A stretch of 64,000 nucleotides of DNA from the NCBI GenBank assembly GCA_947382645.1, contig CANDAE010000010.1, positions 52,097 to 116,096 on the forward strand, given 5' to 3'. The translations under genes and the position numbers were made by a program. Of this stretch, positions 22,614 to 38,651 are shown one piece after another (positions within the stretch are counted from its first letter, which is position 1; every line of letters begins with the position of its first letter). The stretch comes from an uncultured Lachnospiraceae bacterium. GTDB taxonomy: Bacteria; Bacillota; Clostridia; Lachnospirales; Lachnospiraceae. A model generated the notes under the pieces. That model was not told where the DNA came from, did no database searches, and worked only from the letters and a program-made list of their open reading frames with translations.

Positions 22614-23930
22614 TTATTCTGTTGCGGAAGAAGAGGCTACTCTGCCATCCCACAGTTCCTGCAATGCCCTGCAGGTTGCTTCCCGATCCGCTGCTCCTGC
22701 TGCATATGCCTGTAAGGGTTCCGCCTGATCCGTATTAAATCCGGAAGGCCATTCTTCTGCGCCCAGTCCGTCATAAGACATTCCATCAGCCATATACTGA
22801 TTCATATCCATATACAAAGGTCCTATATCTGATAAATCCAATGTGTCATAGGGAGCTGCAATACACACCTTTTCAACCAGATATTTCTGTGCATTGTCCA
22901 CAAACCACTGTAGAAAGGCCTTTGCTTCCTCTTCATGTTTGGAAGTATTTGAAATACTTAAAAATCTGGTAGTGGAAACCTGCAGTTTTGTCTGGGAAGG
23001 ATCATCTGTAAGAGGAACCGCAAACAAACCGATATTCATATCAGGATTGATATTTAAAAGCGTATCCGTATACCAGGTTCCCTGTTTTACCATAGCAATT
23101 TCTCCGTTGACAAAGGAGTTGATCTGGTCATCAAAATGGTGCCCTATGGACTCTGCTCCCCAGCCATATTCCAGCGTCAGATCATAAAAATCAAAAAAGC
23201 TGTCCATGTATTTCATGTTGGAAAATGTTTCTTCTTTTGCAGAAAGTCTCTCCGAAGTTTCCAATGCACCTTCATAAGTAAAAGGAATTCCTAAAATATG
23301 CATCAAAAATCCCCAGTCTCCCCACGCTTCACCAAAAGCCTGAATGCCTGCCGCCTGCAGTTTTTCACAGGTTTCCTTTAATTCGCTGATTGTTTCAGGT
23401 ACTTTTTCAATTCCGGCCGATTCAAATAAATCTTTGTTATATATGATACCGCTGCCCTCCATTGCATAAGGAAGACCATATATTTTACCTTCATAGCTTC
23501 CTCCATTTAAAGAAGCCTCATAAGCATGCTCTGTCCATGCTTCTCCTGAAAGGTCCATGCATCTTTCGTACCAGGTATCGTAATCGCCGCCTCCCAAGTC
23601 AAAAATATCCGGTGCTTCTCCGGAAGCAAAACGGGCTTTTAACACGGTGTAAGGCTCATCTCCCGGAATTTCCCACTCCAGAGTTACACCTGTTTCTTCC
23701 TTATAATCTTTACAAATCTGCTCTACCATTTCTGTATATCCTGCAGTTCCCTGATATACCGTAAGTACAACGTCCTCACTTTGCGCCTGACTTGTGCTGC
23801 TTTCGGATGTGTTTGAACTCCCTTCTGCATTTGATAAATTTTCCTTTGCAGTATCAGCACTGCATCCTGCCAAAACAGAAAATGTTAAGGCTGCTGCTGC
23901 CAGACAGCTAATCACTTTTTTTACTTTCAT
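22614..23930 (-). CDS. Oligosaccharide ABC transporter substrate-binding lipoprotein
   Basis: Lipobox LAGC, GEAPDIF, GKIYGLP and IYNKDLFE. Start after GGAGGG. Confidence 0.92.
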   Translation of the reverse strand: MKVKKVISCLAAAALTFSVLAGCSADTAKENLSNAEGSSNTSESSTSQAQSEDVVLTVYQGTAGYTEMVEQICKDYKEETGVTLEWEIPGDEPYTVLKARFASGEAPDIFDLGGGDYDTWYERCMDLSGEAWTEHAYEASLNGGSYEGKIYGLPYAMEGSGIIYNKDLFESAGIEKVPETISELKETCEKLQAAGIQAFGEAWGDWGFLMHILGIPFTYEGALETSERLSAKEETFSNMKYMDSFFDFYDLTLEYGWGAESIGHHFDDQINSFVNGEIAMVKQGTWYTDTLLNINPDMNIGLFAVPLTDDPSQTKLQVSTTRFLSISNTSKHEEEAKAFLQWFVDNAQKYLVEKVCIAAPYDTLDLSDIGPLYMDMNQYMADGMSYDGLGAEEWPSGFNTDQAEPLQAYAAGAADREATCRALQELWDGRVASSSATE

Positions 23931-24093
23931 AATTTTATCCCTCCATCTCCGGATACTTTTTACTCCTGTAAGCTGCAAGTCATTGCTGCCTGGAAATTTT
24001 CCGTATCCTGTTTGATGTTTTTATTATAAAATTCATCCCTCAAGTGCTCTACAGAACATCCGAACCTCTTTCCAGCACAATTTGAAACCATAT

Positions 24094-25635
24094 TTATTCA
24101 GATTGTCCTCTTCTGTACCGGGCAGGTGTCTGCCCTGTATATTTTTTAAAAACTCTTCCAAAATAATTTTCATCTTCATAACCAACCATTTCCGCCACCT
24201 GTACCACACTTCTTTTTCCTGTTTTCAGTAATTCACAGGCTTTTTCCATCCGCATCTTTGTAATGGCGGTTACAATGGTCATATGATATTTGTTTTTAAA
24301 AATTCTTGCCACATATTGTGGCGTCTGAAAAAGATCCGCCGCAATAGTTGAAAGCGTTATATCTTCTGAATAATGCTCCTTGATGTAAGCATATATTATC
24401 TCCGCAGGTTCTTCCTTTATCCGGAAGTAATCCATAAGCAGGTCAAGACGTTTTAGCACTTCTTTTTCCCATAAATCAATGTCATTAATCCACAGAGAAA
24501 GAAGTTCCGTAGGAACCTCCCTCTCCTGTCTGGCGGCAAGCCGTCCAAGCAGAAGATTCATGTCGGCAGTACATCTTTGCAGTTCCTGTAATTTCAACGC
24601 CCCTCCCCTCTTTAAGCCGCTACAGTAATCTCTAATAATTTTTTTAAGCATTTCTCTGTCCTTGCTTTCCAAAACGCTTATCATTCGCAATTCCAGACTC
24701 AATGCCCCGTCACTCTGCACAGGATTTTTTTCTGCCAGAGAAGCTATCGTGCCGCATCCCCAAACATTTCTTTGACGTAAAATTCCATTTTGTTCCCCTA
24801 ATATATTCTTTAAGTCTTTCAGCTCCACAGGTTCCAGACTCACTACCCAGGTAATCTTTAGTCCAACAGCTTCTTCTATCTTCTTTTCAAAAATCTTCAT
24901 TTTATCTGAAACCTTAAAGGAATTCAATTCTTCTTTCTGTAAAAAAAACTGCCAGTTAAATTCATCTACATAAATATCCTGTTTGAAAAAATAAAGTTTA
25001 AAAATGTCACGCATAACATTTCCTACAGTAAAAAAACAAAGTTCTCTGTCACCCTCATATTTATTCTCTATGACTTCTGAGGCATTCCGGCTCAAAACAG
25101 ATACCAGTAAAAATTTTCCATTTCCGGCACCCAGCTTTACAAATGCTTCCTCTGTCTGCTCCCTGCTCACCCCTTCTCCTCTGCAAAAACTCTGCAAAAT
25201 CTGATTAGCCATAACAATCCCCATTTGTTCATGTTGTCTGTTCTTAACAGCCTCTTCTTTTTCTCCCCGAATTTTTAAAATAGCTTTTTCCAGCGCATTT
25301 ACCAGAGTTTCCTTTCCGAAGGGCTTTAAAATATAATCAACTCCGTTAGCCAGCAGTGTGGCATAAACATAGGAAAAATCGCTGTACCCGCTGATTGCAA
25401 TTACCTGAATTTTAATCTGACGCTCCGTAATTTCTTTCAGAAGCTCTCTTCCGCCCATCACCGGCATTTCCATATCACAAAGTAAAATTTCCGGCTTTTT
25501 TTCCTCAATTATTTTCAGGGCTTCTATCCCATTTGTTGCATAATAAACTTCCTGCACTTCATAACTCTCCCAATCGATCATCAGCTCAATGGCTTCTCTC
25601 ATATGAACTTCATCATCAACAATTATTACTTTCAT
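24094..25635 (-). CDS. Two-component response regulator, receiver plus AraC HTH (YesN-like)
   Basis: Motifs IIVDDE, CDMEMP and YILKP, with a C-terminal AraC HTH (YFGRVFKKYTGQTP). Confidence 0.93.
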   Translation of the reverse strand: MKVIIVDDEVHMREAIELMIDWESYEVQEVYYATNGIEALKIIEEKKPEILLCDMEMPVMGGRELLKEITERQIKIQVIAISGYSDFSYVYATLLANGVDYILKPFGKETLVNALEKAILKIRGEKEEAVKNRQHEQMGIVMANQILQSFCRGEGVSREQTEEAFVKLGAGNGKFLLVSVLSRNASEVIENKYEGDRELCFFTVGNVMRDIFKLYFFKQDIYVDEFNWQFFLQKEELNSFKVSDKMKIFEKKIEEAVGLKITWVVSLEPVELKDLKNILGEQNGILRQRNVWGCGTIASLAEKNPVQSDGALSLELRMISVLESKDREMLKKIIRDYCSGLKRGGALKLQELQRCTADMNLLLGRLAARQEREVPTELLSLWINDIDLWEKEVLKRLDLLMDYFRIKEEPAEIIYAYIKEHYSEDITLSTIAADLFQTPQYVARIFKNKYHMTIVTAITKMRMEKACELLKTGKRSVVQVAEMVGYEDENYFGRVFKKYTGQTPARYRRGQSE

Positions 25636-27371
25636 TCCTGCTCCTTATTTTCTTTTGCTATTACAAACTCAACTGTTGTTTCCACTTTGGGTATACTTTG
25701 AATTTCCCAGTCAAATCTTTCTTCATAATAAATACTGCATCTTTGCAGCACATTTAATAAGCCAATTCCATGATCCGAGGCCGCAGTAAATTCATAATTT
25801 TTATAGGCTTCCTTCAATTTTTGTATCTGCTCCCTGCTCATACCAATTCCATTATCAATAACCCGTATCTGGTATTTATCCGGTTTTTCATTAATGGAAA
25901 TCATAATAGTTCCTGTTCCGTCCTTTTTGTCAATTCCATGCTTAATGCTGTTCTCCACAAGAGGCTGTAGAATCATTTTGGGAATAAGCAGGCTGCCTGC
26001 CTCTTTGGGATAATGAAGCATAAAATGGAGTCTTCCGGCAAATCTTCCCTCCTGCAGCGCAATATAGTTTTCAATATGCTTCAACTCTTTTTTAAGGGTA
26101 ACAATATCCTCTCCGGTATTCATTGTATATTGGAACAGTTCTCCTAACTGCGTCAACTGCATTGAAACTTCCTGGCAATGATGTTTCAGTGCAGTCGTGC
26201 TGATATATTGCAGCATATTATATAAAAAATGCGGATTGATTTGTGCCTGCAGCATTTTAAAACGGGATTTTGTCACCTCTAACTGATAACGATAATTTTT
26301 ATTGATCAGCTCATCCAGGTTTGTCATCATTTCCGCATACTTGTTTTCCAGAATTCCCAGCTCATCTTTGCGGTTTGATTTCGACTTATATACAAATTCG
26401 GGTTTTTGTTTAACCGCTTCCATATTATTAAGCATTCTTCTCACCGGAGAAATAAACAGATTAAACACCAGAAACAAAAATACTACGGATACTGCCAACA
26501 GACAGGCCTGTACTGCCATTGCCCCAATGACGACTCTCTCGGCAGGATCTGTAAACCAGTGATTATCTACAAACATAATAAGACGAACCTCTTCTCCTTT
26601 ATAGAAATCTCTTTTCAGAAAAAACATTCCCTTTGCTCCGTCCAATGTTCCTTTGGTATAATGTTTTTCTAAAAGTTCTTTTTCTGCATAATCGGCATTT
26701 TCAAAAAAACCTGACGTATAAATCAGTTCTCTGCCATCTTCTCCAAGGCAGACCATAACCACATTGTCTTTATACTGTCCGCATAATGTTTTTGTCACCT
26801 CCTGTAATTCTTTTAAATCTGCAAAAATGCGCATACTGACAGCAGTGTCATAAGATGGAACATTCTGAATATCCATATTGTAAATTAAATAAACTGGATT
26901 TCCCACTTCGTCTCTTCCCACCTGAAAAATATCTCCACTCCGCTCCGGATATTGATACTCTCCAATTTCCATCCTTCTTTGTGCATTCGCATAAACGCCA
27001 TTAATGACCTCCCCATTTTTGCAGTACATCACAATACGAAAAATTGCAGGCGCTTTATCACTGACAGCTTTGCCGTATTTACGTACCATATAACGCTCTA
27101 CATCTGTAAACTTTGTTTTTCGATTTAATATTCTGACAACATCCGGATTTTCAAATAAATTCATAGGCGCCTGTTCTATCCTGCGGATAAAATTTATTGT
27201 CTCCTCCATGCCAATTCCCATCATGCTTTCATTCCAGTCAATAATCTGCTGCTGCATCATATGGTAATTCTGCCTGTATGCAATCACATTAGATATGATA
27301 CTTGGCAAAATAATAACCAACATTAGTAGTGCAATCAGTTTCATAAAAAGGCTGTTTTTAATTTTATCCAT
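25632..27371 (-). CDS. Sensor histidine kinase (YesM/LytS-like)
   Basis: Motifs LQAQINPHFLYN, LQPLVENSIKHG, DNGIG and GIGLLNV, with two TM segments. Confidence 0.93.
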   Translation of the reverse strand: MDKIKNSLFMKLIALLMLVIILPSIISNVIAYRQNYHMMQQQIIDWNESMMGIGMEETINFIRRIEQAPMNLFENPDVVRILNRKTKFTDVERYMVRKYGKAVSDKAPAIFRIVMYCKNGEVINGVYANAQRRMEIGEYQYPERSGDIFQVGRDEVGNPVYLIYNMDIQNVPSYDTAVSMRIFADLKELQEVTKTLCGQYKDNVVMVCLGEDGRELIYTSGFFENADYAEKELLEKHYTKGTLDGAKGMFFLKRDFYKGEEVRLIMFVDNHWFTDPAERVVIGAMAVQACLLAVSVVFLFLVFNLFISPVRRMLNNMEAVKQKPEFVYKSKSNRKDELGILENKYAEMMTNLDELINKNYRYQLEVTKSRFKMLQAQINPHFLYNMLQYISTTALKHHCQEVSMQLTQLGELFQYTMNTGEDIVTLKKELKHIENYIALQEGRFAGRLHFMLHYPKEAGSLLIPKMILQPLVENSIKHGIDKKDGTGTIMISINEKPDKYQIRVIDNGIGMSREQIQKLKEAYKNYEFTAASDHGIGLLNVLQRCSIYYEERFDWEIQSIPKVETTVEFVIAKENKEQE

Positions 27372-27547
27372 GTAAAATATCCTCTCTGATCTTAAAAGCA
27401 GAATTTGCTGTATCACGGCATATACAGAATCATTTTACTAAAACTGCTCAAGGCAAAACAGGGAATATCTGAACCTGTTTTACGTACAATTTGAATTATT
27501 TTTCATTTCTTATTACTAGTCTTAACCAGGAAATCGGCACTGAATTC

Positions 27548-27576
27548 TTGACTTTTAAATTATTTAGTCATAGAAT
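27548..27576 (+). promoter_or_regulatory. sigmaA-type promoter of the phosphonate cluster
   Basis: TTGACT, 17-bp spacer, TAGAAT. Confidence 0.7.
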
Positions 27577-27617: not shown

Positions 27618-27872
27618 ATGAAAAAAATAGGACTGGCAGTCTTTAAATTTACGTATTTTTTTACATGCTTCTTTTTCCTGTTCAGTAATACCGCATTTGC
27701 ATATATTGATCCGTCTGCAGTCACTTATGTGATTCAGGCTGTCGCAGGTATTTTCATTGCTGTAGGCGCTGCATGTACCGTTTACAGACACAAAATTGCA
27801 AAGTTTTTTCGAAAGATGAAGAAAAAACACAATAAAAAGAAACAGGAGAAGGAACAGGAGTCCCATGAATAG
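27618..27872 (+). CDS. Small membrane protein (signal peptide, YIDP motif, TM helix, basic tail)
   Basis: AAAGGA RBS; predicted AFA|YIDP cleavage site; hydrophobic VIQAVAGIFIAVGAACTVY; K-rich C-terminus. Overlaps the next gene by 8 nt. Confidence 0.75.
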   Translation: MKKIGLAVFKFTYFFTCFFFLFSNTAFAYIDPSAVTYVIQAVAGIFIAVGAACTVYRHKIAKFFRKMKKKHNKKKQEKEQESHE

Positions 27873-29808
27873 TATAATTAATCTGATCGGTGATATTCTG
27901 GGATGGCTGATGTATTTCAGTTATCATCTCCTGCATAATTATTTCTGGTCGATTTTATTTTTTACTTTTTTAACAAAAATTCTTTTATTTCCGGTTTCTC
28001 TAATGGTACAGAAAAATTCCATTAAGATGGTAAAGCTCCAGCCGGAAATTAATTTTATTAAAGCGAAATATTTTGGAAATGGCGAAAAAATATCAGAGGA
28101 ACAATATGAATTATATAAACGGGAACACTACCAGCCTTTAGCGGACTTAATTCCCCTGATTCTTCAACTTGTCCTTCTAATGGGTGTTATTAACGTCATT
28201 AATGATCCGGTAAAACATATTTTTCGAGGCGGCGCCGGAACATTAAATACCATGTTTGGCGGGATAGATTTGTCTTCCATCCCCATAGAAACAAGAGGAA
28301 TTACATATTTAATTCCTCTTATTGCTGCATTTTCCGCCTGGTTTATGTGTTTTATTCAAAACCGCATTAATGTGCTTCAATCCGAACAAAATAAATTCAA
28401 TCAATACGGCACTATGCTGTTGTCCATTGGCTTATCCCTGTATTTAGGCTTCTTTGTAAAAACCGGGGTTGGTATTTACTGGACATTTAGTAATTTACTT
28501 TCCATTGCTCAGTTATATTTACTTAACATCATTATGAATCCCAAAAAATATATTGATTATGATGCATTGGAAAAAAGCCGGAAAGAGCTTGCCGAAAGCT
28601 CGGCCTTTCACAAATCTTCACAGAAAAAATTATTTGATAAGGATCCTTACCGCAGGAAAGAGAAAGCCGACTATAAACGATTTTTCAAAGATTATGAAAT
28701 GCAGATTGTCTTTTATTCTGAGAAAAACGGGTTTTACAAATATTTTCAAAATATCATTGAAACCCTGTTAAAAAAATCAAACGTAATCATCAATTATATT
28801 ACAAGTGATCCGAAAGATCAGGTATTTCAAATGGAAAGCGACCGCTTCCGTCCTTTTTATATTGGCGAGCATAAATTAATTGTTCTTATGATGAAACTGG
28901 AAGCAGATCTGGTAGTTATGACCACTCCTGACCTGGAAAATTTTCATTTAAAACGCTCTCTGGTTCGAAAGGACAACGAATACATTTACGTTCCCCATGA
29001 TGTTAACAGCCCGAACCTTACTTTTCATAAAGATGCGCTGGATCATTTTGACACCATTTTTTCTTCCGGTTTTTTATGCACAAAGGAAATTCGAAAAAGG
29101 GAAGAATTATATCACCTGCCTTCCAAAAATATCATTGAATGGGGCTCCGGCGTAATTGACAATATGATTTTTGCATACGAGAATATGGATAAGCGCCGAA
29201 AAACTGTTCGGGAAATTCTGATTGCGCCTTCCTGGCAAAAGGACAATATTTTATCTTCCTGTATAGAAGAAATACTGGATTATCTGGGGGGACTTGGATA
29301 TAAAATTATTTTAAGGCCTCATCCTCAGTTTGTCCGCCATGAGGAAAGCCGGCTTGAATACCTGCGCCAAAAATATCATATGGATTCCCGTGATGACATG
29401 GAATTACAGACAGACTTTTCTTCCAACAGCACCATCTATGAAGCCGATCTTGTCATTACGGACTGGTCAAGTATTGCATTTGAATACTCCTTTGCAACAC
29501 TGAAACCATCTTTATTTATTAATACGCCAATGAAGATTATGAATGAAGACTATGAAGAGCTGGGAATTACCCCTATTGATATAGAGCTTCGCAATAAAGT
29601 GGGCAGAAGCGTTGAACTGGAAAGTTTAAAGGATTTGCCGAAAATTATACATGAATTACTAACCAGCAATGAATTTTCAAGAGAAAGCCTTCACAAAATC
29701 CGTGAAAAATATATTTATAATATTGGCTCCAGTGGAGAAAAAGGCGCAGATTATATTCTTGAAAGACTAAAGTATTATAAGAAAAAACATGAAGAGGAAG
29801 ACGACTGA
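27865..29808 (+). CDS. YidC/Oxa1 insertase domain fused to a CDP-glycerol glycerophosphotransferase (TagF/TagB-like) domain
   Basis: N-terminus: LTKILLFP...KLQPEI...ELYKRE...LIPLILQL...GVGIYWTFSNLLSIAQ (YidC core). C-terminus: ILIAPSW, LRPHPQ and ADLVITDWSSIAFEY (Glyphos_transf). Confidence 0.85.
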   Translation: MNSIINLIGDILGWLMYFSYHLLHNYFWSILFFTFLTKILLFPVSLMVQKNSIKMVKLQPEINFIKAKYFGNGEKISEEQYELYKREHYQPLADLIPLILQLVLLMGVINVINDPVKHIFRGGAGTLNTMFGGIDLSSIPIETRGITYLIPLIAAFSAWFMCFIQNRINVLQSEQNKFNQYGTMLLSIGLSLYLGFFVKTGVGIYWTFSNLLSIAQLYLLNIIMNPKKYIDYDALEKSRKELAESSAFHKSSQKKLFDKDPYRRKEKADYKRFFKDYEMQIVFYSEKNGFYKYFQNIIETLLKKSNVIINYITSDPKDQVFQMESDRFRPFYIGEHKLIVLMMKLEADLVVMTTPDLENFHLKRSLVRKDNEYIYVPHDVNSPNLTFHKDALDHFDTIFSSGFLCTKEIRKREELYHLPSKNIIEWGSGVIDNMIFAYENMDKRRKTVREILIAPSWQKDNILSSCIEEILDYLGGLGYKIILRPHPQFVRHEESRLEYLRQKYHMDSRDDMELQTDFSSNSTIYEADLVITDWSSIAFEYSFATLKPSLFINTPMKIMNEDYEELGITPIDIELRNKVGRSVELESLKDLPKIIHELLTSNEFSRESLHKIREKYIYNIGSSGEKGADYILERLKYYKKKHEEEDD

Positions 29809-29852: not shown

Positions 29853-30983
29853 ATGCAGATAGAAAGAAAAATATTATTAAATCCCGGACCTGCAACTACA
29901 ACAGATACTGTAAAAATGGCACAGATTGTACCTGACATCTGCCCAAGAGAAAAAGAATTTGCTTCCATGATGAAGCAGATGAGAGAAGATCTGGTCCGTA
30001 TTGTTCATGGCAGCCCTGATAAATACACTTCCGTCCTTTTCTGCGGTTCCGGAACCATTAATATTGATGTGTGTTTGAACTCACTTCTTCCCGAAGGAAA
30101 AAAGATATTAATTGTCAATAATGGTGCCTACAGCGCCCGGGCAGCGGAAGTATGTGAATATTACCATCTGCCATTTATCAATCTTAGATTTCCGGTGGAT
30201 GAACTGCCTGATTTGGCTCAAATTGAAACTGCGTTAAAAGAAAATCCGGATATTGCTCTGGTTCATACCACCCACAATGAAACCGGCACAGGTATCTTAA
30301 ATCCTATTCGGGAAATTGGCGCTCTGGTTCATAAATATCATGCTGTTTTTACGGTGGATACTACATCTACTTATGCCATGCGTCCAATTAACATAGAAGA
30401 AGACCAAATTGATTTTTGCATGGCTTCCGCCCAGAAGGGGCTTATGGCAATGACAGGACTGTCATTTATTGTTGGCAATAGGGAAATAATTAAAAAATCA
30501 GCTGAATATCCTAAACGTTCCTATTACTGCAACCTGTATCTGCAATATCATTTTTTTGAAACAACAGGAGAAATGCACTTTACTCCTCCCGTTCAGACAA
30601 TCTATGCCGCACGTCAGGCAATCAGGGAATACTTTGCAGAAGGAGAAGAGACGAAATGGCAGCGGCACTTAAGCGTTTTTCATGCCATTCATGAAGGACT
30701 TGACAGGCTGGGATTTAAAGATATTATTAAAAGAAAGTGGCAGGCAGGGCTTGTTGTTTCTGTCAGGTATCCGGATGATGCCAACTGGGATTTTGAAAAA
30801 ATTCATGACTATTGTTATGACAGAGGTTTTACAATTTATCCTGGAAAAATTTCCTCCCAGAACACTTTCAGATTATGCGCATTAGGCGCTATCACCACAG
30901 AAGATATTAAAAACTTTTTTGACATATTTGAGGAAGCCCTGAAAAAATATGAGATAAAAATTCCTGTTCAATATAATGATTAA
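29853..30983 (+). CDS. aepZ: 2-aminoethylphosphonate aminotransferase (PLP, class V)
   Basis: Motifs LLNPGPATT, NNGAYSAR, HNETGTGILNP, SAQKG and FTPP. Lies beside pepM. Confidence 0.92.
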   Translation: MQIERKILLNPGPATTTDTVKMAQIVPDICPREKEFASMMKQMREDLVRIVHGSPDKYTSVLFCGSGTINIDVCLNSLLPEGKKILIVNNGAYSARAAEVCEYYHLPFINLRFPVDELPDLAQIETALKENPDIALVHTTHNETGTGILNPIREIGALVHKYHAVFTVDTTSTYAMRPINIEEDQIDFCMASAQKGLMAMTGLSFIVGNREIIKKSAEYPKRSYYCNLYLQYHFFETTGEMHFTPPVQTIYAARQAIREYFAEGEETKWQRHLSVFHAIHEGLDRLGFKDIIKRKWQAGLVVSVRYPDDANWDFEKIHDYCYDRGFTIYPGKISSQNTFRLCALGAITTEDIKNFFDIFEEALKKYEIKIPVQYND

Positions 30984-31018: not shown

Positions 31019-32314
31019 ATGAAAAAAGTATACACATGTTTCTGTACGGATGTGATCCATGAAGGCCATCTTAATATTTTAAAAGAAGCAAACAAATACG
31101 GTGATGTCACTGTAGGTATTCTCAGTGATGCCGCAATGATAAAGTACAACCGTTTTCCCACCATTTCCATTGAAGAGCGGAAAACAATTGTAAAAGAAAC
31201 CGGACTGGTTTCAAACATTATCATTCAGAACGAAATTATGTACGATAATGTCTTAGCACAGCTAAAACCCGACTACGTAATTCATGGCGATAACTGGTGC
31301 AAAGGTCCGGAAAGTGCAATCAGAACCAACGTAATTAATAATTTAAATAAATATGGCGGAAAACTGATTGAAATTGGTTACACTTATAATGAAAATGTCC
31401 GGAAAATTGACGATAACATAAAAGAAAAGCTTGCAATGCCTGAATTCAGAAGAAAACGTCTCCGCCAGCTTTTAAAATTATGCCCCATTGTAAAAGCAAT
31501 TGAGGCTCACAGCGGACTTACAGGGCTGATTGCGGAAAAAACAGTTGTTGAACACAACGGAGAATTAGATCAGTTTGATGCCATGTGGCTGTCGAGCCTT
31601 TGTGACTCTACTGCCAAAGGCAAACCTGATATTGAGCTTGTGGATATGTCCTCCAGAATACGCACCATTGACGATATTATGGAAGTAACTACAAAACCTG
31701 TTATTTTAGACGGAGATACCGGCGGTCTGGTGGAACATTTTATTTATAATGTGCGCACCTTAGAGCGCATGGGCGTATCGGCAGTGATTATTGAAGATAA
31801 AACCGGGCTTAAGAAAAATTCCTTATTTGGCACGGAAGTGGCACAGACACAGGATTCCATTGAAAACTTTTGCGAAAAGATTCGCGCCGGAAAAAATGCA
31901 CAGAGAACAGAAGAATTCATGATTATAGCCAGAATTGAAAGCCTGATTCTTGAAAAAGGCCAGGAAGATGCTCTTAAACGTGCTTTTGCATATGTGGATG
32001 CAGGCGCTGACGGTATTATGATTCATTCCAGAAAATCATTGCCTGACGAAATTTTTGCCTTTTGCGACGCTTTTAGAGCAAAAGATTCACATACACCCAT
32101 TGTTGTGGTTCCAACATCCTTCAACTGCGTGACAGAAGCAGAACTGATTAAGCATGGAGTAAATATTGTAATTTACGCAAACCAGTTAACGCGCAGCGCT
32201 TTTCCGGCCATGCAGAATACTGCCATAGATATTTTAAAAAACCACAGAGCTTTGGAAGTGGATTCCAGACTAATGCCTTTTAAAGAAATTATCACCTTAA
32301 TTGATGACATATAA
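31019..32314 (+). CDS. aepX: Phosphoenolpyruvate mutase with N-terminal cytidylyltransferase domain
   Basis: PepM signature EDKTGLKKNS and EAHSGLTG; N-terminal HxGH motif (DVIHEGH). Confidence 0.96.
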   Translation: MKKVYTCFCTDVIHEGHLNILKEANKYGDVTVGILSDAAMIKYNRFPTISIEERKTIVKETGLVSNIIIQNEIMYDNVLAQLKPDYVIHGDNWCKGPESAIRTNVINNLNKYGGKLIEIGYTYNENVRKIDDNIKEKLAMPEFRRKRLRQLLKLCPIVKAIEAHSGLTGLIAEKTVVEHNGELDQFDAMWLSSLCDSTAKGKPDIELVDMSSRIRTIDDIMEVTTKPVILDGDTGGLVEHFIYNVRTLERMGVSAVIIEDKTGLKKNSLFGTEVAQTQDSIENFCEKIRAGKNAQRTEEFMIIARIESLILEKGQEDALKRAFAYVDAGADGIMIHSRKSLPDEIFAFCDAFRAKDSHTPIVVVPTSFNCVTEAELIKHGVNIVIYANQLTRSAFPAMQNTAIDILKNHRALEVDSRLMPFKEIITLIDDI

Positions 32315-32327
32315 AGTGAGTAAAATT

Positions 32328-33038
32328 ATGAGCAAAGAAATTGGTATCATTATGGCAGCAGGGCTTGGAAGCAGAATGCACCCTGTCACAAAAACAATTC
32401 CCAAGCCTCTCGTAAAAGTATTTGGAAAACCTCTTATTGAAACTGTCATTGATGGCCTTTTAAAAAGAGGTGTTACGGAGATTTATGTTATTGTAGGCTA
32501 TTTAAAGGAATGTTTTTCCGGATTGTGCGATAAATATCCACAGATTACATTAATTACAAATCCCGATTACCTTGTGAAAAATAATATTTCTTCCATTTAT
32601 GCTGCCAGAAATGTTTTAGGCAAGGCCAATTGTTTTATCTGCGAAGCAGACTTGTTGATTTCCGATTCATCCGTATTTGAAAAAAAATTAAGCAGTTCCT
32701 GCTATTATGGCCGGATGATGGCCGGTGTTTCTGACGATTGGATCTTTGAATTAAAGGACGGTTATATTTCCAGAGTCAAAAAAGGTGGTAAAGATACCTA
32801 CAACATGGTGGGTATCTCCTACTTTACAAAAAAAGACAGCCTGATTTTAAAGGAAAAAATTGAGGAAGCATACCGCCAGGAGCAAAATTCCAATTTGTAT
32901 TGGGATGAGGTAGTGGACTTAAATCTGAACGAACTTAAACTTAAAATTGAGCCTGTAGAAGAAGGACAAATTATCGAAATTGATACGGTAGAAGAATTGC
33001 TTGCAATTGATCCAAATGCAGGAGAACAGGAGTGCTGA
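32328..33038 (+). CDS. LicC/PntC-like NTP transferase (probable AEP cytidylyltransferase)
   Basis: Motifs IIMAAGLGSRM, PKPLVKV, NNISS and EIDT. Sits between pepM and ppd. Confidence 0.8.
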   Translation: MSKEIGIIMAAGLGSRMHPVTKTIPKPLVKVFGKPLIETVIDGLLKRGVTEIYVIVGYLKECFSGLCDKYPQITLITNPDYLVKNNISSIYAARNVLGKANCFICEADLLISDSSVFEKKLSSSCYYGRMMAGVSDDWIFELKDGYISRVKKGGKDTYNMVGISYFTKKDSLILKEKIEEAYRQEQNSNLYWDEVVDLNLNELKLKIEPVEEGQIIEIDTVEELLAIDPNAGEQEC

Positions 33039-33040
33039 AA

Positions 33041-34189
33041 ATGAAAGCTGACTTTTTCTTACATAAAATAAATGAAATGGGCATTCAAACTATTGTCGGA
33101 GTGCCTGATTCCACATTAAAGCAGCTATGTGACGAAATTCAACTGGATGCCGGAAAAAATTTCCGTCATTACGTAACTGCAAACGAAGGGGCTGCTGTCG
33201 CCCTTGCTTCCGGTGAATATCTTGCCACAGACAGGCCATGCTGTGTCTATCTGCAGAACTCCGGCATTGGCAATATAATTAATCCGGTTGCTTCTATCAC
33301 CAACAGGGAAGTATATGGAATTCCAATGCTTTTTGTAATTGGCTGGCGGGGTGAACCGGGCAAAAAGGATGAACCCCAGCATGTCTATCAGGGAAAAATT
33401 ACCTGCAAATTACTGGAAGTAATGGACATTCCTTATTCCGTTATTGATTCTGAAACCACAAACGAGGAACTTGATACGATTCTTGCAAACGCAGATTCTC
33501 ACCTTTCAAATGAAATGCAATATGCTTTGGTAGTAAAAAAAGACACTTTTGAAAAGGGTTCTTCCTTTACCTGGGATAATGGCTATGCGCTTGTACGCGA
33601 ACAGGCCTTAAAAACAATTCTTGAGGAGGTATATGAAGATTCTTACCTTATATCCACCACTGGAAAAATTTCCAGGGAGCTGTACGAGCAGAGCAACCAG
33701 CTTTTTGGCAGTCATGAGCGGCTTTTTATGTGCGTTGGAGGCATGGGGCATGCATCCATGATCGCATATGGTATGGCACAGGCAGATAAAACGAAAAAAA
33801 TCGTCTGTATAGATGGAGACGGGGCCCTTATGATGCATATGGGTTCTTTGGCATTTATTGCAAAACAGGCTCCTGAAAATTATTTGCATATTGTAATCAA
33901 TAATGCTTCCCACGAATCAGTAGGCGCTATGCCTACCGGTTTTTCGGGCCAGACTTACGCTCAAATTGCAAAAGCATGCGGATATCCTCATGTCACTACC
34001 GTTTACACGAAAGAAGATCTTAAGGCAGCTTTACAGAAGGCTAAAAAAATGCAAAAACTTTCTTTCATTGAGGTTATGGTATCTCTGGATTCCAGAAAGG
34101 ATTTAGGCAGGCCTTTGGAAAGTGCAAGGGAAAACAGGATTCAATTTATGAATACCTGTATTAATCAATATAAGGGAGATTTTAAATGA
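33041..34189 (+). CDS. aepY: Phosphonopyruvate decarboxylase (ThDP)
   Basis: Motifs GVPDSTLK, ANEGAAV, YLQNSGIGN, DEPQH, GGMGHAS, DGDGALMMHMG and HESVG. Confidence 0.95.
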   Translation: MKADFFLHKINEMGIQTIVGVPDSTLKQLCDEIQLDAGKNFRHYVTANEGAAVALASGEYLATDRPCCVYLQNSGIGNIINPVASITNREVYGIPMLFVIGWRGEPGKKDEPQHVYQGKITCKLLEVMDIPYSVIDSETTNEELDTILANADSHLSNEMQYALVVKKDTFEKGSSFTWDNGYALVREQALKTILEEVYEDSYLISTTGKISRELYEQSNQLFGSHERLFMCVGGMGHASMIAYGMAQADKTKKIVCIDGDGALMMHMGSLAFIAKQAPENYLHIVINNASHESVGAMPTGFSGQTYAQIAKACGYPHVTTVYTKEDLKAALQKAKKMQKLSFIEVMVSLDSRKDLGRPLESARENRIQFMNTCINQYKGDFK

Positions 34190-35895
34190 AAGAAAAACTG
34201 AAAAATTGGGGCATCGGTTTTTTGATATGCTTTTTATTTGCCTTTATGCTTTTGATTTTCGGCCCGGCAGAAATTTATTTTGTAAATGTAGCTGAATTTA
34301 AATTTGTGTATGGTGAGTTTGTATGGCTCCTGTCCGGAATTGCCATAATCAGTTCCGCTGTCATAAGTTTTCTTGCTGCATTTCTTCCGCCTGTAGTAAG
34401 AAAAATTATATGGTCTGTTTTCTTCGGGCTGTCTGTTGCCGGTTATGCACAAATTATGTTTATCAATGAAGGGCTGGATCTGCTTGGAATGAATCCGGAA
34501 GGCTATCAATCCGGTATTGGACAGGCTGTTTTCAATGGCTTTCTATGGCTGGCGCTGCTTGCTCTTATTATTTTTCTGGCTTTATGGAAGGAAAAAATCT
34601 GGCAAAGCATCATTTGCTTTGGAGCAGTTTTTTTAATAGGCATTCAATCGGTTGCCTGGATTTCATTGATGTTATCGGCTGAAGAAATTGCATACAAATA
34701 CGAAGAAGGCGAATGGTCTCTTTCAGGTGAAGACCAGTTCAAAGTATCCTCTGGCAAAAATATTATTGTATTTGTACTGGATTATTTCAGCAATCAATAT
34801 ATAGAACCAACAATGGAACAGTACCCTGATCTGCTTGACGGTTTGAATGATTTTACCTACTACAGCAACACTGACTGCACCTATTTCGGCACATATCCAT
34901 CACTGGCACATATGCTGTCAGGCTCGGAACCTGATCCTTCAATTTCAATTAATGACTGGACCTCAAAAATATGGCAGGACGAAAAAACAGTGGGATTTTA
35001 TCAGGCTTTGCATGATCAGAATTATGTGGTAAATGTTTATACTCCGGATAAAAACATGCTTTGCGGCATGAACAGTGCAGAAATATTAAACCAAAATTTT
35101 TCCAACGTTACCAATGCCGGACAGGACTTTAATGTAAACTACGTCCTTCTTGCAAAAACAATGATTAAAATGTCAGCTTACCGTATGTTTCCATATGCAT
35201 TAAAACCTTATTTCTATGCAAATGTCAGCGAGTATTCTGAAATTATTACTCCGAAAAGCAGAGGAGTAAGCCATGAAAACCACCGTTATTATGGACATTT
35301 ACTGGAAGAAAAGCTTTCAACAGATGACAAATCAAATTATTATATATTCCAGCATTTGTCGGGAACTCATGTCTATGAAACAGACATAACAGGTGAATAT
35401 GCAGAAAACTCTTCTCTGGAAAAAACCGCAAAGGGCTGTATGGTCATCATGGAGGAATATTTAAATCAATTAAAAGAACTTGGAGTTTATGACGATGCCA
35501 CTATTATTATAACAGCAGATCATGGAGGTTCAAGGGACTCACAGGTTATATTTTTTATGAAAAATGCTCATGAATCCCATGAAGAAATGCTTATCAGCAA
35601 TGCTCCTATTGGTTTAACAGAATTTCAGGCGACTATTGCACAATCTGCCGGAATTGATTATTCACCTTATGGACCAGCAGTCAGCGATATCTCTCCCTCT
35701 ATACCCAGGGAAAGAACTGTATGGGTTCGTTTGTATGTTGATACCCTGCCCTCTGTTCCAAAATATTCCGGCGAAGGAGAAAGTGTATCCAATGCCTACT
35801 GCGGCTTTACCTATACGGGAGATATCAACGATCTATTCGAAAAATATGATGATGGACCAGATATTATCATTCCGGAAACAGACGGATTTTTCTAA
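34186..35895 (+). CDS. Multi-TM alkaline-phosphatase-superfamily protein (LtaS/EptA-like phospho(no)transferase)
   Basis: About 5 N-terminal TM helices, then VFVLDYF, GTYPSL (Thr at the nucleophile position), HLSGTH and IITADHG. Confidence 0.75.
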   Translation: MKEKLKNWGIGFLICFLFAFMLLIFGPAEIYFVNVAEFKFVYGEFVWLLSGIAIISSAVISFLAAFLPPVVRKIIWSVFFGLSVAGYAQIMFINEGLDLLGMNPEGYQSGIGQAVFNGFLWLALLALIIFLALWKEKIWQSIICFGAVFLIGIQSVAWISLMLSAEEIAYKYEEGEWSLSGEDQFKVSSGKNIIVFVLDYFSNQYIEPTMEQYPDLLDGLNDFTYYSNTDCTYFGTYPSLAHMLSGSEPDPSISINDWTSKIWQDEKTVGFYQALHDQNYVVNVYTPDKNMLCGMNSAEILNQNFSNVTNAGQDFNVNYVLLAKTMIKMSAYRMFPYALKPYFYANVSEYSEIITPKSRGVSHENHRYYGHLLEEKLSTDDKSNYYIFQHLSGTHVYETDITGEYAENSSLEKTAKGCMVIMEEYLNQLKELGVYDDATIIITADHGGSRDSQVIFFMKNAHESHEEMLISNAPIGLTEFQATIAQSAGIDYSPYGPAVSDISPSIPRERTVWVRLYVDTLPSVPKYSGEGESVSNAYCGFTYTGDINDLFEKYDDGPDIIIPETDGFF

Positions 35896-36011
35896 AAAAA
35901 CGTAACTATATAAACAACGTACGCTGCCTTCATAAGGCATCCTATGTTAATAAAATCATGTAAGTCTTTTCTGCATGGAAAGGGCTTATGTGGGAAAGCA
36001 CAGGTATAACA

Positions 36012-37325
36012 ATGAACATAGTTTTATTATCCGGCGGCTCAGGCAAACGATTATGGCCGCTATCCAACGATATTCGTTCCAAACAGTTTATTAAAATTTT
36101 CAAAACACCGGAAGGCGGCTATGAATCTATGGTGCAGCGCGTTTATCATCAGATTCGTAAGGCTGATGAAAATGCCACCATCACCATTGCCACATCCAAA
36201 ACACAGGTATCTGCAATTCACAATCAATTAGGTGATAATGTGGGTATTTCCGTAGAGCCCTGCAGAAGAGATACCTTTCCGGCAATTGCCCTGGCAACCG
36301 CTTACCTTCATGATGTTCTGGGCATTTCCAGGGAAGAATCTGTGGTAGTCTGTCCCGTGGATCCTTACGTGGAGGATGATTATTTTGAAATGATTAAGAA
36401 ATTAAGTCTTCAGGCAGATAAGGGAGAAGCAAATCTGGTTTTAATGGGAATTGAACCTACCTACCCCAGTGAAAAGTATGGTTATATCATCCCGGAAAAC
36501 AGTAATTTTATCAGTGATGTTTCCTGCTTTAAAGAAAAACCTGATGTAAAAACTGCCAAAGAATATATTTCCCAGGGAGCTTTGTGGAATGGAGGCGTGT
36601 TTGCTTATAAGTTAAAGTACGTCCTTGATAAAGCACATGAATTAATTGACTTTACTGACTATGAAGATTTGTTTTCCAGGTATGAAACTTTAACTAAAAT
36701 AAGTTTTGACTATGCAGTGGTGGAAAAAGAAAGTAAAATTCAGGTAATGCGTTTTTCCGGCCAGTGGAAGGATCTGGGCACCTGGAATACCCTGACGGAA
36801 GCAATGGAAGAGCCTAATGTTGGAGAAGCTGTAATGAATGAAACATGCAGCAATGTTCACATTATTAATGAACTTGATGTTCCCATTCTTGCGATGGGAT
36901 TATCTGACGTAGTTATCTCAGCCAGCCCGGATGGCATTCTGGTTTCAGATAAAGAGCAGTCAAGTTACATTAAGCCTTTTGTTGATAAATTTGACCAGCA
37001 GATTATGTTTGCAGAAAAATCCTGGGGAAGTTTTCGGGTACTGGATGTAGAATCAGGCAGTATGACCATAAAAGTTATTTTAAACCCGGGACATAAAATG
37101 AACTATCACAGTCATAAACACAGGGATGAAATCTGGGTAGTTATCTCCGGCACAGGACATACTGTTGTAGACGGAATGGAACAAAAAGTCAGCGCCGGTG
37201 ACGTAATCACCATGCAGGCCGGATGTCGTCATACTATTTTTGCCGATACAGAATTAAAGCTGATCGAGGTTCAATTAGGCAAGGAAATCAGTGTTCATGA
37301 TAAACAAAAATTTGCACTTGAATAA
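36012..37325 (+). CDS. manC: Mannose-1-phosphate guanylyltransferase with C-terminal cupin
   Basis: Motifs LSGGSGKRLWPLS, VEPCRRDT, YGYI, FKEKP, SFDYAVVE, WKDLGTW and EKSWG...H. Confidence 0.88.
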   Translation: MNIVLLSGGSGKRLWPLSNDIRSKQFIKIFKTPEGGYESMVQRVYHQIRKADENATITIATSKTQVSAIHNQLGDNVGISVEPCRRDTFPAIALATAYLHDVLGISREESVVVCPVDPYVEDDYFEMIKKLSLQADKGEANLVLMGIEPTYPSEKYGYIIPENSNFISDVSCFKEKPDVKTAKEYISQGALWNGGVFAYKLKYVLDKAHELIDFTDYEDLFSRYETLTKISFDYAVVEKESKIQVMRFSGQWKDLGTWNTLTEAMEEPNVGEAVMNETCSNVHIINELDVPILAMGLSDVVISASPDGILVSDKEQSSYIKPFVDKFDQQIMFAEKSWGSFRVLDVESGSMTIKVILNPGHKMNYHSHKHRDEIWVVISGTGHTVVDGMEQKVSAGDVITMQAGCRHTIFADTELKLIEVQLGKEISVHDKQKFALE

Positions 37326-38301
37326 CCCCTTTTTATTAAAACCGGCAGGAAAAGATTATCTGTGGGGCGGCCGCCGGTTAAATGACGATTTTTCAAAAGG
37401 CATTGATATGACGCCGCTGGCGGAAACCTGGGAATGTTCTACCCATCCTGATGGCCTCAGTATCATAAACAGCGGAGTTCATAAAGGCGCTTTTCTTTCT
37501 GACGTGCTGCAGGCACACCCTGAATATTTGGGCCTGCATTCCATGTCCCAAAAAGAGCTTCCAATCCTGATTAAATTTATTGATGCAAAAGATGATTTGT
37601 CTGTACAGGTGCATCCGGACGACGCTTACGCAATGGCCCATGAAAAAGGCGCCAACGGAAAAACAGAAATGTGGTACGTTATGGATGCTTCAAAAGACGC
37701 TAAGCTCATCTACGGTCTTTCCCACACTGCCGATAAGGAAACCATAAAAAAAGGAATTGAAGAGGGAACCCTTGAAAAGTACCTTCAAAAAGTACCTGTT
37801 AAAAAAAATGATGTTTTTTCCATAGAGCCCGGCACCATACATGCCATTGGTGCAGGTGCCCTGATTGCAGAAGTACAGGAAAATTCAAATATTACTTACC
37901 GCCTGTATGATTATGACCGTATAGATAAAACAGGGCATAAAAGAGCTCTGCATATAGAAAAAGCTCTTGATGTGGCTAATTTAAACGGAATCGAAGCACC
38001 AAGACAAAATTTAAGGGTATTAAAATATCAGCCCGGTTGTGCTGTTGAGTTTTTATACCGCTGTAAATATTTTCAAGTGGAACGTATGCTGGTAAATACG
38101 GAGCGGATTCGTGAAATGGTTCCCTTTGCCACCACCGAACTTTCCTTTGAAGTACTGCTGTGCATGGATGGCTGCGGAAGTATATCCTTCGGAAAAAATG
38201 AAATGCTCCACTTCTTTCGCGGCGACTGTATTTTTGTACCTGCAAGCTCTGTTTCCATTAAAATTCATGGCAGTGCACAATTCTTAAAGGTAGGCTGTTA
38301 G
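37291..38301 (+). CDS. manA: Mannose-6-phosphate isomerase, class I
   Basis: Motifs KDYLWGG, LPILIKFIDA, LSVQVHP, GKTEMWY, GTIHAIG and EVQENSNITYRLYDY. Exact start uncertain. Confidence 0.92.
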   Translation: MFMINKNLHLNNPFLLKPAGKDYLWGGRRLNDDFSKGIDMTPLAETWECSTHPDGLSIINSGVHKGAFLSDVLQAHPEYLGLHSMSQKELPILIKFIDAKDDLSVQVHPDDAYAMAHEKGANGKTEMWYVMDASKDAKLIYGLSHTADKETIKKGIEEGTLEKYLQKVPVKKNDVFSIEPGTIHAIGAGALIAEVQENSNITYRLYDYDRIDKTGHKRALHIEKALDVANLNGIEAPRQNLRVLKYQPGCAVEFLYRCKYFQVERMLVNTERIREMVPFATTELSFEVLLCMDGCGSISFGKNEMLHFFRGDCIFVPASSVSIKIHGSAQFLKVGC

Positions 38302-38369: not shown

Positions 38370-38651
38370 CTAAACCGTTGATGCGGAGATAAAGGTGATG
38401 ATGCTCCCACAGAGAGCCCGGATTGCTGAGAACGGGCGGAAAACAAATCATCAAATGGACCGCTGAGGGTGCAGTGAACAATAGTTGCTTCGTAACTATT
38501 CAGTATTCTGCAACGTAAGGCATACGTCAGTTGCCAGGGATATGATGGTATCCCGTAAGCGTACAGCATGGGCTGTAAATCAAGGTGGCACCGCGGATAT
38601 AGTATACTTATTCGTCCTTGACAGAAATACTTCTGTCAGGGGCGTTTTTTT
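38370..38651 (+). ncRNA. T-box riboswitch (tryptophan specifier)
   Basis: AG box (acagagagc), GCTGAG, a UGG specifier at 38456-38458, T-box AAGGTGGCACCGCG at 38582-38595, and a terminator cgtccttgacag...ctgtcaggggcg-TTTTTTT upstream of trpE. Confidence 0.92.

Follow-up and report, generated by a model that had tools for sequence, protein, structure and literature searches.

A YidC-type fold joined to a TagF-like transferase and paired with a conserved micro-protein in a predicted aminoethylphosphonate cassette of gut Clostridia

Why is a membrane protein insertase fold joined, in one polypeptide, to an enzyme resembling the polymerase TagF, and what might such a protein do next to genes for 2-aminoethylphosphonate (AEP)? 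The question is raised by a stretch of 64,000 nucleotides from an uncultured, rodent-gut Lachnospiraceae bacterium (assembly GCA_947382645.1, contig CANDAE010000010.1, positions 52,097 to 116,096 of the forward strand; this whole stretch is called the window below), in which a single unbroken open reading frame (ORF) of 647 aa, at 27865..29808 on the plus strand, encodes both parts. We find that this fusion of a YidC domain, paired with an obligate micro-protein, is real, widespread and without a described counterpart, and that it suggests a mechanism that can be tested. Membership of the YidC and TagF families is given by profile and by fold, and both activities are predicted. The fusion is composed as follows.

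27865 to 28539, plus strand: YidC/Oxa1 core domain, aa 1–225, with five transmembrane helices and a cytoplasmic hairpin (profile hidden Markov models (HMMs), AlphaFold2 model, Foldseek, alignment)
27976 to 27978, plus strand: codon of the groove residue Lys38 (alignment to YidC references)
28540 to 28689, plus strand: basic helical linker, aa 226–275 (AlphaFold2 secondary structure; dip of the predicted local distance difference test, pLDDT, at aa 254–258)
28690 to 29808, plus strand: TagF-like GT-B phosphotransferase domain, aa 276–647, with the motifs APSWQ, RPHPQ and TDWSSIAFEY

A preliminary description, made from the letters of this DNA, had proposed an uninterrupted 647-aa frame with a YidC/Oxa1 core in its first ~225 residues, a Lys at the position of the groove Arg and a remainder like CDP-glycerol glycerophosphotransferases (CDP, cytidine diphosphate), and all of this was borne out. 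The Pfam family 60KD_IMP (PF02096) matches aa 26–221 over profile positions 1–162 of 163 (E = 1.7e-30, 106.6 bits with a cut-off of 35), and TIGR03592, the NCBIfam model for the C-terminal domain of YidC/Oxa1 proteins, is matched with 94.5 bits, above its cut-off of 84.3. The Pfam family Glyphos_transf (PF04464) matches aa 415–552 (E = 4.4e-7, 29.6 bits with a cut-off of 22.1), and relatives reach up to 52 bits with this family over profile positions 12–292; no other protein of the genome passes the Glyphos_transf cut-off. An AlphaFold2 model built on a 50-sequence alignment has a mean pLDDT of 91.1, and it is the model used here, as the single-sequence model (pLDDT 38) was discarded as unusable. 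It consists of five long helices plus a hairpin, the helical linker and a two-lobed Rossmann-type domain, with helices of the YidC part at aa 26–68, 73–86, 91–113, 145–168, 177–197 and 200–223. In Foldseek comparisons with the PDB, the YidC part matched 6al2 (probability 1.0) and 3wo6 (TM 0.73 on the target), and the TagF-like part matched first TagF (3l7j, E = 6e-10), then 8qoy, which is the TagF-like capsule polymerase Bcs3, and then generic GT-B enzymes. As the HMM spans only the C-terminal lobe, it is this structural match that assigns the TagF fold to the whole C-terminal domain. The modelled protein thus comprises an entire YidC fold and, after it, a GT-B fold of the TagF type. TarL (8va1, E = 6e-6) was also matched by a profile built from the C-terminal domain, with APSW aligned to APTF, RPHP to KMHP and TDWSxIxxEY to SDYSSLIYEY. 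H378 and H486 are invariant among the fusions, the N-lobe His being without residue-level alignment to H444 of TagF. The linker is about as identical among fusions as both domains are, and the GT-B domain is predicted to be cytoplasmic, because the five transmembrane helices run from outside to inside.

How far does this architecture extend? In a word-indexed search, 8000 candidates were scored, and the best 120 are 65–100% identical over the 647-aa query; all of these have the YidC domain, nearly all also the TagF-like domain, and their database name, where one is given, is 'membrane protein insertase YidC'. Among 50%-identity representatives, which were searched exhaustively, 528 matched below 1e-30, and a scan of one genome per GTDB species gave at least 589 fusion loci, in the Clostridia and beyond. 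For the best 80 of these at least 589 loci, the ORFs around the fusion were clustered, and the neighbourhood counts below are over 77 loci or, where stated, over the 50 loci that are fully flanked with at least 6 kb on each side. The best 80 loci stem mostly from Lachnospiraceae of the mouse, rat, ruminant and human gut, and also from Oscillospiraceae, Acutalibacteraceae, Ruminococcaceae and Acetivibrionales; cultured carriers among them are Lachnospiraceae bacterium A4, Lachnospira eligens and Eubacterium sp. CAG:248. Of 151 genera sampled evenly from the family to which the window belongs, seven carry the fusion. An apparent split version with separate YidC-like and TagF-like genes (P0198) was dropped, as it lies on a frameshifted contig with 2x coverage. 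Our literature searches on YidC with phosphonate or TagF found no description of the fusion architecture or of its pairing with a micro-protein, in agreement with the preliminary description, to which no characterised system of this kind was known.

The fusion is a YidC paralogue that lies apart from the canonical locus. A second PF02096 gene of 451 aa is present on contig C16 in the order rnpA-yidD-yidC-jag-mnmE, so that the fusion is not the only yidC of the genome, and the two proteins share ~33% identity across the core. Whole-genome scans of two relatives (G070 and G032) gave the fused gene as the only PF02096 match, but jag is absent there as well, and we discounted these cases as a likely assembly gap in the rnpA-yidC-jag region. 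Within the motif FTFLTKILLFP, K38 aligns with the groove Arg of Escherichia coli and Bacillus halodurans YidC (R366 and R72, respectively, in the numbering of Kumazaki et al., 2014). Position 38 is K in 75, R in two and a gap in one of 78 aligned fusions, and K in nine and R in five of 14 diverse members (A1). T34, K38 (as K/R), Q101, W206 and N210 are at least 95% conserved across the 78 fusions, equally to C162, Q165, N166, N169, Q172, E174 and Q175 at the cytoplasmic end of the third transmembrane helix; the median identity is 58% for the YidC domain and 58% for the catalytic domain, and the family profile matches YidC structures with E-values of 1e-22 to 1e-24. The fusion hence shares with the Gram-positive YidC proteins (B. 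halodurans YidC2, 3WO6/3WO7; Bacillus subtilis SpoIIIJ/MisCA and YqjG/MisCB) and with the E. coli core the five-helix core and the cytoplasmic hairpin, and likewise the positive charge at the groove position of the first transmembrane helix and the groove set of T, Q, aromatic residue and N. Unlike these insertases, it sits outside the rnpA-yidD-yidC-jag order, has Lys rather than Arg in 75/77 close relatives, possesses neither a lipoprotein signal nor a ribosome-binding tail, as its C-terminus runs into a 370-aa enzyme, and is always paired with one specific micro-protein.

The gene of this micro-protein directly precedes the fusion in the window.

27618 to 27872, plus strand: micro-protein gene of 84 codons (ORF reading and comparison of loci; no Pfam match)

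Its 3' end, with the stop codon, reaches 8 nt into the fusion gene and across the ATG of the latter. The protein consists of the leader MKKIGLAVFKFTYFFTCFFFLFSNTAFA and a mature part that opens with YIDPSAVTYVIQAVAGIFIAVGAACTVYRHKIAKFFRK; the signal-peptide-like leader ends with AFA, an A-x-A cleavage site, and the mature part begins with Y29-IDPSAVTYVIQAVAG, after which the transmembrane helix follows. After the leader, its layout thus comprises a short acidic stretch, then a transmembrane helix rich in small residues and finally a tail with basic and acidic residues. Homologues accompany the fusion in 71/77 loci and in 49/50 fully flanked loci, just upstream in 53 and just downstream in 18 cases. 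In the mature core, YIDPSxxTYxIQ, the residues Y1, D3, P4, S5, Y9, Q12, A20 and G22 are present in 71/71 and T8, A15 and A23 in 70/71 loci, which makes this core far more conserved than the cassette enzymes. The invariant polar residues (Y1, S5, T8/Y9, Q12) map to one face of the helix, which is rich in Ala, Gly and Gln and fits helix–helix packing. With two hydrophobic segments that flank a short acidic loop, or an N-tail in leaderless versions, the micro-protein looks like a classic YidC-only substrate; it resembles the small YidC substrates M13 procoat, Pf3 coat and MifM in having a leader, then a short acidic stretch that is translocated, and a transmembrane helix with a basic tail on the cytoplasmic side. 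MifM is an upstream sensor encoded next to YidC, and the micro-protein also adjoins a YidC, but sometimes downstream. A MifM-like regulatory leader was rejected as a general role, as 18/71 loci have the gene downstream and conservation is found in the membrane core rather than in the tail. In 15 loci (L057, L061, L083, L085, L086, L091–L093, L095–L097, L100, L102–L104), which mostly are those with the micro-protein gene downstream of the fusion, the cassette contains a signal peptidase I (S26) gene, and this suggests a dedicated cleavage that would leave the Tyr N-terminal.

What could the fused enzyme transfer? In the window, the genes that follow answer in part, since they encode a complete set of candidates for making and activating AEP, followed by an LtaS/EptA-like membrane protein.

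27548 to 27576, plus strand: promoter-like TTGACT-17 nt-TAGAAT, a consensus match only, upstream of the micro-protein gene
29853 to 30983, plus strand: AepZ/PhnW-type AEP aminotransferase (TIGR03301, 459.7 bits against 360.8)
31019 to 32314, plus strand: phosphoenolpyruvate mutase (Ppm) with an N-terminal PF01467 cytidylyltransferase-like domain (TIGR02320, 410.4 against 319.55)
32301 to 33038, plus strand: LicC/PntC-like nucleotidyltransferase, presumed to make CMP-AEP (cytidine monophosphate-AEP; specificity inferred from PMC6697681)
33032 to 34189, plus strand: phosphonopyruvate decarboxylase (Ppd; TIGR03297, 450.4 bits against 312.5)
34186 to 35895, plus strand: LtaS/EptA-like membrane protein of 569 aa (borderline PF00884, conserved active-site residues)
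35988 to 38301, plus strand: ManC-like and ManA-like genes (guanosine diphosphate-mannose supply), a possible operon tail

AepZ, Ppm and Ppd each exceed the cut-off of their NCBIfam equivalog. Four junctions overlap (micro-ORF/fusion by 8 nt, Ppm/PntC, PntC/Ppd, Ppd/LtaS-like) and two have short gaps of 35–44 nt (fusion/AepZ, AepZ/Ppm). The AEP genes thus directly follow the fusion, as the preliminary description had stated, but its view that the fusion heads a phosphonate operon needs to be modified, as the micro-protein gene comes first. The clear promoter that it described was not borne out as such: the promoter-like site lies upstream of the micro-ORF, in the 200-nt gap after a divergent histidine-kinase gene, where it is the only good match, and the scan as a whole gave 36 matches compared with 34.3 in shuffled sequence, i.e., no better than chance. 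ManC and ManA were rejected as cassette members, as relatives do not retain them beside the fusion; the trp operon begins at 38485. The AEP core of the window contains two cytidylyltransferase folds, the PF01467 domain fused to Ppm and the separate LicC-like gene. This type of Ppm fusion is known and is carried by 23.6% of Ppm proteins (PMC6697681).

The link to AEP genes is not a peculiarity of the window. Neighbours of the fusion, nearly all on the same strand, include PntC/LicC-like genes in 44, the cytidylyltransferase–Ppm fusion in 39, AepZ in 38 and Ppd in 34 of the 77 loci, and in the even sample of the family Ppm occurs in 5/7 genomes with the fusion versus 11/144 others (Fisher p = 1.3e-4), so that the co-occurrence with the mutase gene (pepM) that the preliminary description had proposed counting does exist among close relatives. 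Fusion orthologues of at least 53% identity are almost all in AEP clusters, and the 39 loci with Ppm belong essentially without exception to such orthologues. More distant fusions are mostly found in Lic-type (phosphocholine) or amino-alcohol-type contexts: LicA-like choline-kinase genes are near the fusion in ~10 loci, that of L. eligens included, and in 12 loci the gene directly downstream encodes a nucleoside triphosphate (NTP)-transferase fused to a class I/II, CobD-like aminotransferase (e.g., L048:2133–3953, 605 aa), which may supply a CDP-amino-alcohol-phosphate head group. A set for head-group supply is present in 43/50 fully flanked loci (AEP 28, LicA/LicC-like 7, NTP-transferase–aminotransferase 7, PntC-like only 1). 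The idea of a dedicated phosphonate module therefore did not hold, as distant members lie beside LicA/LicC-like or NTP-transferase–aminotransferase genes; the constant neighbour in AEP, Lic and amino-alcohol contexts is the LicC-family nucleotidyltransferase.

The second recurrent partner is the LtaS-like protein, which has a hydrophobic N-terminal region of 170 aa followed by an outward-facing domain of the alkaline phosphatase superfamily. Its match to the Pfam Sulfatase family (PF00884) is borderline, as its 24.3 bits fall just short of the cut-off of 25 (26.5 if neighbouring matches are counted in), and its similarity to LtaS is weak (E = 0.007), but LD198–199, T236, H390/H395 and DHG445–447 are at least 90% conserved in 60 homologues. 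By its sequence, the partner thus keeps the Thr nucleophile and the Asp/His metal site of head-group transferases, and it has in common with LtaS, EptA/MCR-1, OpgB, GacH and PptA the hydrophobic N-terminus, the outward domain and the conserved Thr and Asp-His metal site; it differs in the borderline Sulfatase match and the weak LtaS similarity. Since lipids on the outside are the source of head groups for LtaS/EptA-type enzymes, and the partner appears to retain such a site, a lipid-linked intermediate is attractive. LtaS-like genes are beside the fusion in 49/77 loci, with 62 copies, and in 33/50 fully flanked loci. In the closest relatives (L026–L029 and L042, 84–86% identical), the LtaS-like gene directly follows pntC, and Ppd was not found within these loci as read; in the window, ppd lies between the two.

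That these components belong to one process follows from single-chain fusions that join the four modules. P0122 and P0136 have the order YidC-TagF-sulfatase, and P0123, P0138 and P0151 the order sulfatase-YidC-TagF. In P0122, P0140, P0152 and P0162, a leader-AYIDPS/AYVDPS-transmembrane module is inserted between the TagF domain and the sulfatase module, and P0154 has a choline-kinase-like C-terminal domain fused to YidC-TagF. All these orders fit a single topology, in which the N-terminus of YidC is outside, TagF inside, YIDPS outside and the sulfatase outside. As side observations on such proteins, P0133 (943 aa) has an extension of ~310 aa N-terminal to the YidC domain, and P0151 (1545 aa) has its sulfatase and YidC modules separated by a DUF7024 region.

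Is the YidC domain needed for the chemistry at all? TagF-like proteins without YidC, which share 25–28% identity with the C-terminal domain, start with M..YIDPGTGSMLF and a transmembrane helix. This N-terminus is homologous to the core of the micro-protein: its YIDPG helix is plainly hydrophobic, unlike the helix of the micro-protein, but has the residues G16 and A20 in common with it, and P0175 is intermediate between both forms. The genes of YidC-less homologues are found in ppm clusters (G005, G051, G329, G361) as well as in clusters of the Lic type, and 8/24 of their loci have an LtaS-like gene at a distance of up to ~10 kb, several times directly adjacent, versus 49/77 loci beside fusions. 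We therefore rejected the idea that the YidC domain is required for the pairing with LtaS-like proteins, although the pairing is rarer at YidC-less loci. Because these homologues pair with ppm clusters and with LtaS-like genes, a conduit formed by YidC is not required for this chemistry, and because they bear both the TagF-like domain and the YIDP helix, these two are the constants of the lineage. It is with the free micro-protein that the YidC domain is most tightly correlated. The YidC domain would then be an addition or a replacement that coincided with the YIDP helix becoming a separate gene.

For the chemistry itself, the known relatives provide a guide. TagF, TarL, TarF and the TagF-like capsule polymerases (3L7I–3L7M, 8VA1, 8QOY) share with the fusion the GT-B fold and the motifs of the C-lobe, but at only ~15% sequence identity to TagF/TarL enzymes; TagF attaches to the membrane by an amphipathic membrane-binding domain, in place of which the fusion has the YidC fold, and the gene context of the fusion would supply CMP-AEP, CDP-choline or amino-alcohol donors, which are not polymerisable. 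Closer in function may be FtaD of Clostridioides difficile, a TagF-like CDP-N-methylthreonine:GlcNAc (N-acetylglucosamine) phosphotransferase, which is encoded beside the maker of its CDP donor and places a single small phospho-head group on a hydroxyl of a sugar (bioRxiv 10.64898/2026.02.12.704994). FtaD differs in being a soluble, stand-alone enzyme that acts on the flagellin glycan and has neither a YidC domain nor a micro-protein or LtaS-like partner. In the Lic (LicA/LicC/LicD, TacF) and Pnt pathways, a LicC-family cytidylyltransferase activates the head group before its transfer to a surface polymer, as would be the case here, but the Lic transferase has the LicD fold and that of the cassette the TagF fold. 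Both LicD and FtaD work in the cytoplasm (PMC6697681; bioRxiv 10.64898/2026.02.12.704994). PntC enzymes produce CMP-AEP, and the subsequent steps were called enigmatic in 2019 (PMC6697681); our literature searches for later work on CMP-AEP transferases found none. Most simply, the fusion would be read as a CMP/CDP-X:acceptor phospho(no)-X transferase, with X probably being AEP in the window, and the fusion would work most like FtaD and LicD in decorating with head groups, coupled to an LtaS/EptA-type partner.

We therefore favour, with moderate confidence, a function as the cytoplasm-facing CMP-AEP head-group transferase of an envelope cassette, in which the YidC domain would insert and hold the micro-protein; most likely, as judged from the genes, the cassette attaches aminoethylphosphonate to the cell envelope. 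The TagF-like domain would transfer AEP from CMP-AEP to a hydroxyl of a membrane-associated acceptor under release of CMP, by the chemistry that TagF employs with CDP-glycerol or FtaD with CDP-N-methylthreonine, and since AEP has no free hydroxyl, this would be a decoration rather than a polymerisation. The YidC domain, with a working groove, would have the main job of first inserting and then holding the YIDPS micro-protein, and together the two would stand in for the N-terminal YIDPG helix of the YidC-less enzymes. At the outer face, the LtaS-like protein would probably take the head group off a lipid-linked intermediate and hand it on to the final polymer of wall or membrane. For the YidC domain, we rank the role of a micro-protein insertase and holdase first, that of a head-group conduit second and that of a passive anchor third.

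Several points weigh against this reading. The insertion and holding of the micro-protein is suggested by co-occurrence and sequence features, the Glyphos_transf match is modest (29.6 bits) and partial (profile positions 152–292 of 367, C-terminal lobe only), and 7/50 fully flanked loci have no head-group supply gene and 17/50 no LtaS-like gene nearby. In addition, four tandem LicD-family genes adjoin a flagellin gene on contig C24 (C24:13295–17043; L125:8188–12164), and their products could be alternative users of CMP-AEP. As for expression, a run labelled RNA-Seq (X4) yielded one 38-kb contig of flat, DNA-like depth, and a second run (X23) covered both divergent operons at a low and fragmentary level, one of its contigs extending over part of the micro-ORF/fusion junction (27684–28259).

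Could the YidC fold do more than handle the micro-protein? A hand-over device across the membrane, in which the YidC/Oxa1 fold and the YIDPS micro-protein would convey head groups, either lipid-linked or borne by the micro-protein, from the TagF-like enzyme to the LtaS-like transferase, is a tentative idea that we hold to be rather unlikely. Its lipid version, which we likewise consider unlikely, is a conduit: the TagF-like domain would load AEP onto a lipid of the inner leaflet, the YidC groove would flip or scramble the product outward, where the micro-protein helix, by its polar face (Y1, S5, T8/Y9, Q12), may extend the groove across the outer leaflet, and the LtaS-like protein would unload it onto a surface polymer. 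The conservation of the groove residues with their buried K/R is in line with such a path, but is equally expected of an insertase or holdase for the micro-protein. As the donors of LtaS/EptA-type enzymes are lipid head groups, an AEP-lipid made inside would have to cross the membrane, and the single-chain fusions link cytoplasmic, membrane and outward modules in topologically consistent orders, with the invariant polar residues of the micro-protein on one helical face; the lipid intermediate itself, however, is postulated by analogy, and the YidC-less YIDPG-helix homologues in ppm clusters, with an LtaS-like gene within ~10 kb in 8/24 loci, argue against a need for a dedicated YidC. The sole precedent for a scramblase role is indirect: phospholipid scrambling has been described in vitro for E. 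coli YidC and in simulations for B. subtilis MisCB (PMC11047089).

At the other extreme, the YidC domain may only tether the enzyme, in which case AEP would be added inside to a lipid-linked glycan that a Wzx/TacF-type flippase exports, and the LtaS-like protein would act independently. This is improbable in our view. It is true that in G005, G051 and others the TagF-like enzymes have a single transmembrane helix in the place of YidC, and that the reactions of LicD and FtaD are cytoplasmic (PMC6697681; bioRxiv 10.64898/2026.02.12.704994). However, a passive anchor is disfavoured by the conservation of the groove, since a membrane-buried charge is not expected to be kept without function, and the buried K/R together with T34, Q101, W206 and N210 is kept in essentially all fusions. 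Moreover, the YidC domain has not diverged faster than the catalytic one, the micro-protein is all but obligate, and LtaS-like and micro-protein modules are covalently joined to YidC-TagF in several lineages.

A conventional explanation would be a second, YidC2-like insertase combined with an ordinary teichoic acid enzyme, which uses CDP-glycerol to prime or extend a glycerol-phosphate polymer, with AEP being added by other proteins. We give it little credence. The best structural matches are indeed the polymerases TagF and Bcs3, the fusion is the genome's single Glyphos_transf protein over the cut-off, and CDP-glycerol could perhaps come from the PF01467 domain fused to Ppm, which weakly resembles glycerol-3-phosphate cytidylyltransferase (TIGR01518, 25 bits against 165). 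Yet phosphonate clusters in general feature the PF01467-Ppm fusion, which accounts for 23.6% of Ppm proteins (PMC6697681), members found outside ppm clusters lack a PF01467 gene and nevertheless keep the LicC-like gene, and there is neither a tagD/tarD equivalog in the cassette nor a tarIJ in its context.

Least probable of all is a protein carrier reminiscent of DltX, the small carrier protein of D-alanylation, to which the micro-protein is linked by likeness: a Tyr, Ser or Thr of the micro-protein would be transiently phosphonylated in the groove and present the head group outside to the LtaS-like enzyme, which would give a sense to a 12-residue outer-face motif that is conserved beyond the needs of an anchor (Y1, D3, S5 and Y9 invariant, T8 in 70/71), to a possible pairing of D3 with K38 and to the dedicated signal peptidases of 15 loci that would leave Tyr N-terminal, but the motif is predicted outside the membrane and the active site in the cytoplasm, a tail cycling across half a bilayer is without YidC precedent, and the hydroxyl positions differ in the YIDPGTGS of the YidC-less enzymes.

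The favoured head-group transferase makes the YidC-TagF family a concrete candidate for the step that uses CMP-AEP, present in at least 589 species genomes and also in cultivable strains, and the annotation as plain 'membrane protein insertase YidC' conceals the cassette from pathway predictions. YidC-TagF is the sole fusion of YidC with an enzyme that our literature searches found, and the micro-protein and the LtaS-like single-chain fusions offer a natural system to ask whether insertase grooves do more than insertion. Should the hand-over device prove true, it would be the first insertase fold with a dedicated role in the translocation of small molecules or lipids, and a new route of envelope decoration in Gram-positive bacteria. 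Decorations with AEP and phosphocholine shape the encounters of gut bacteria with host immunity, phages and antimicrobial peptides.

Two further loci were noted. The LicD genes of contig C24 are located directly downstream of the flagellin gene, with a ribulose-phosphate epimerase and glycosyltransferases nearby, and this locus probably serves the decoration of a flagellin glycan. In the window, the genes divergent from the cassette (22614–27416, minus strand), for which no link to the cassette was seen in relatives, encode a YesM-like histidine kinase, an AraC-type response regulator and a sugar-binding component of an ABC transporter.

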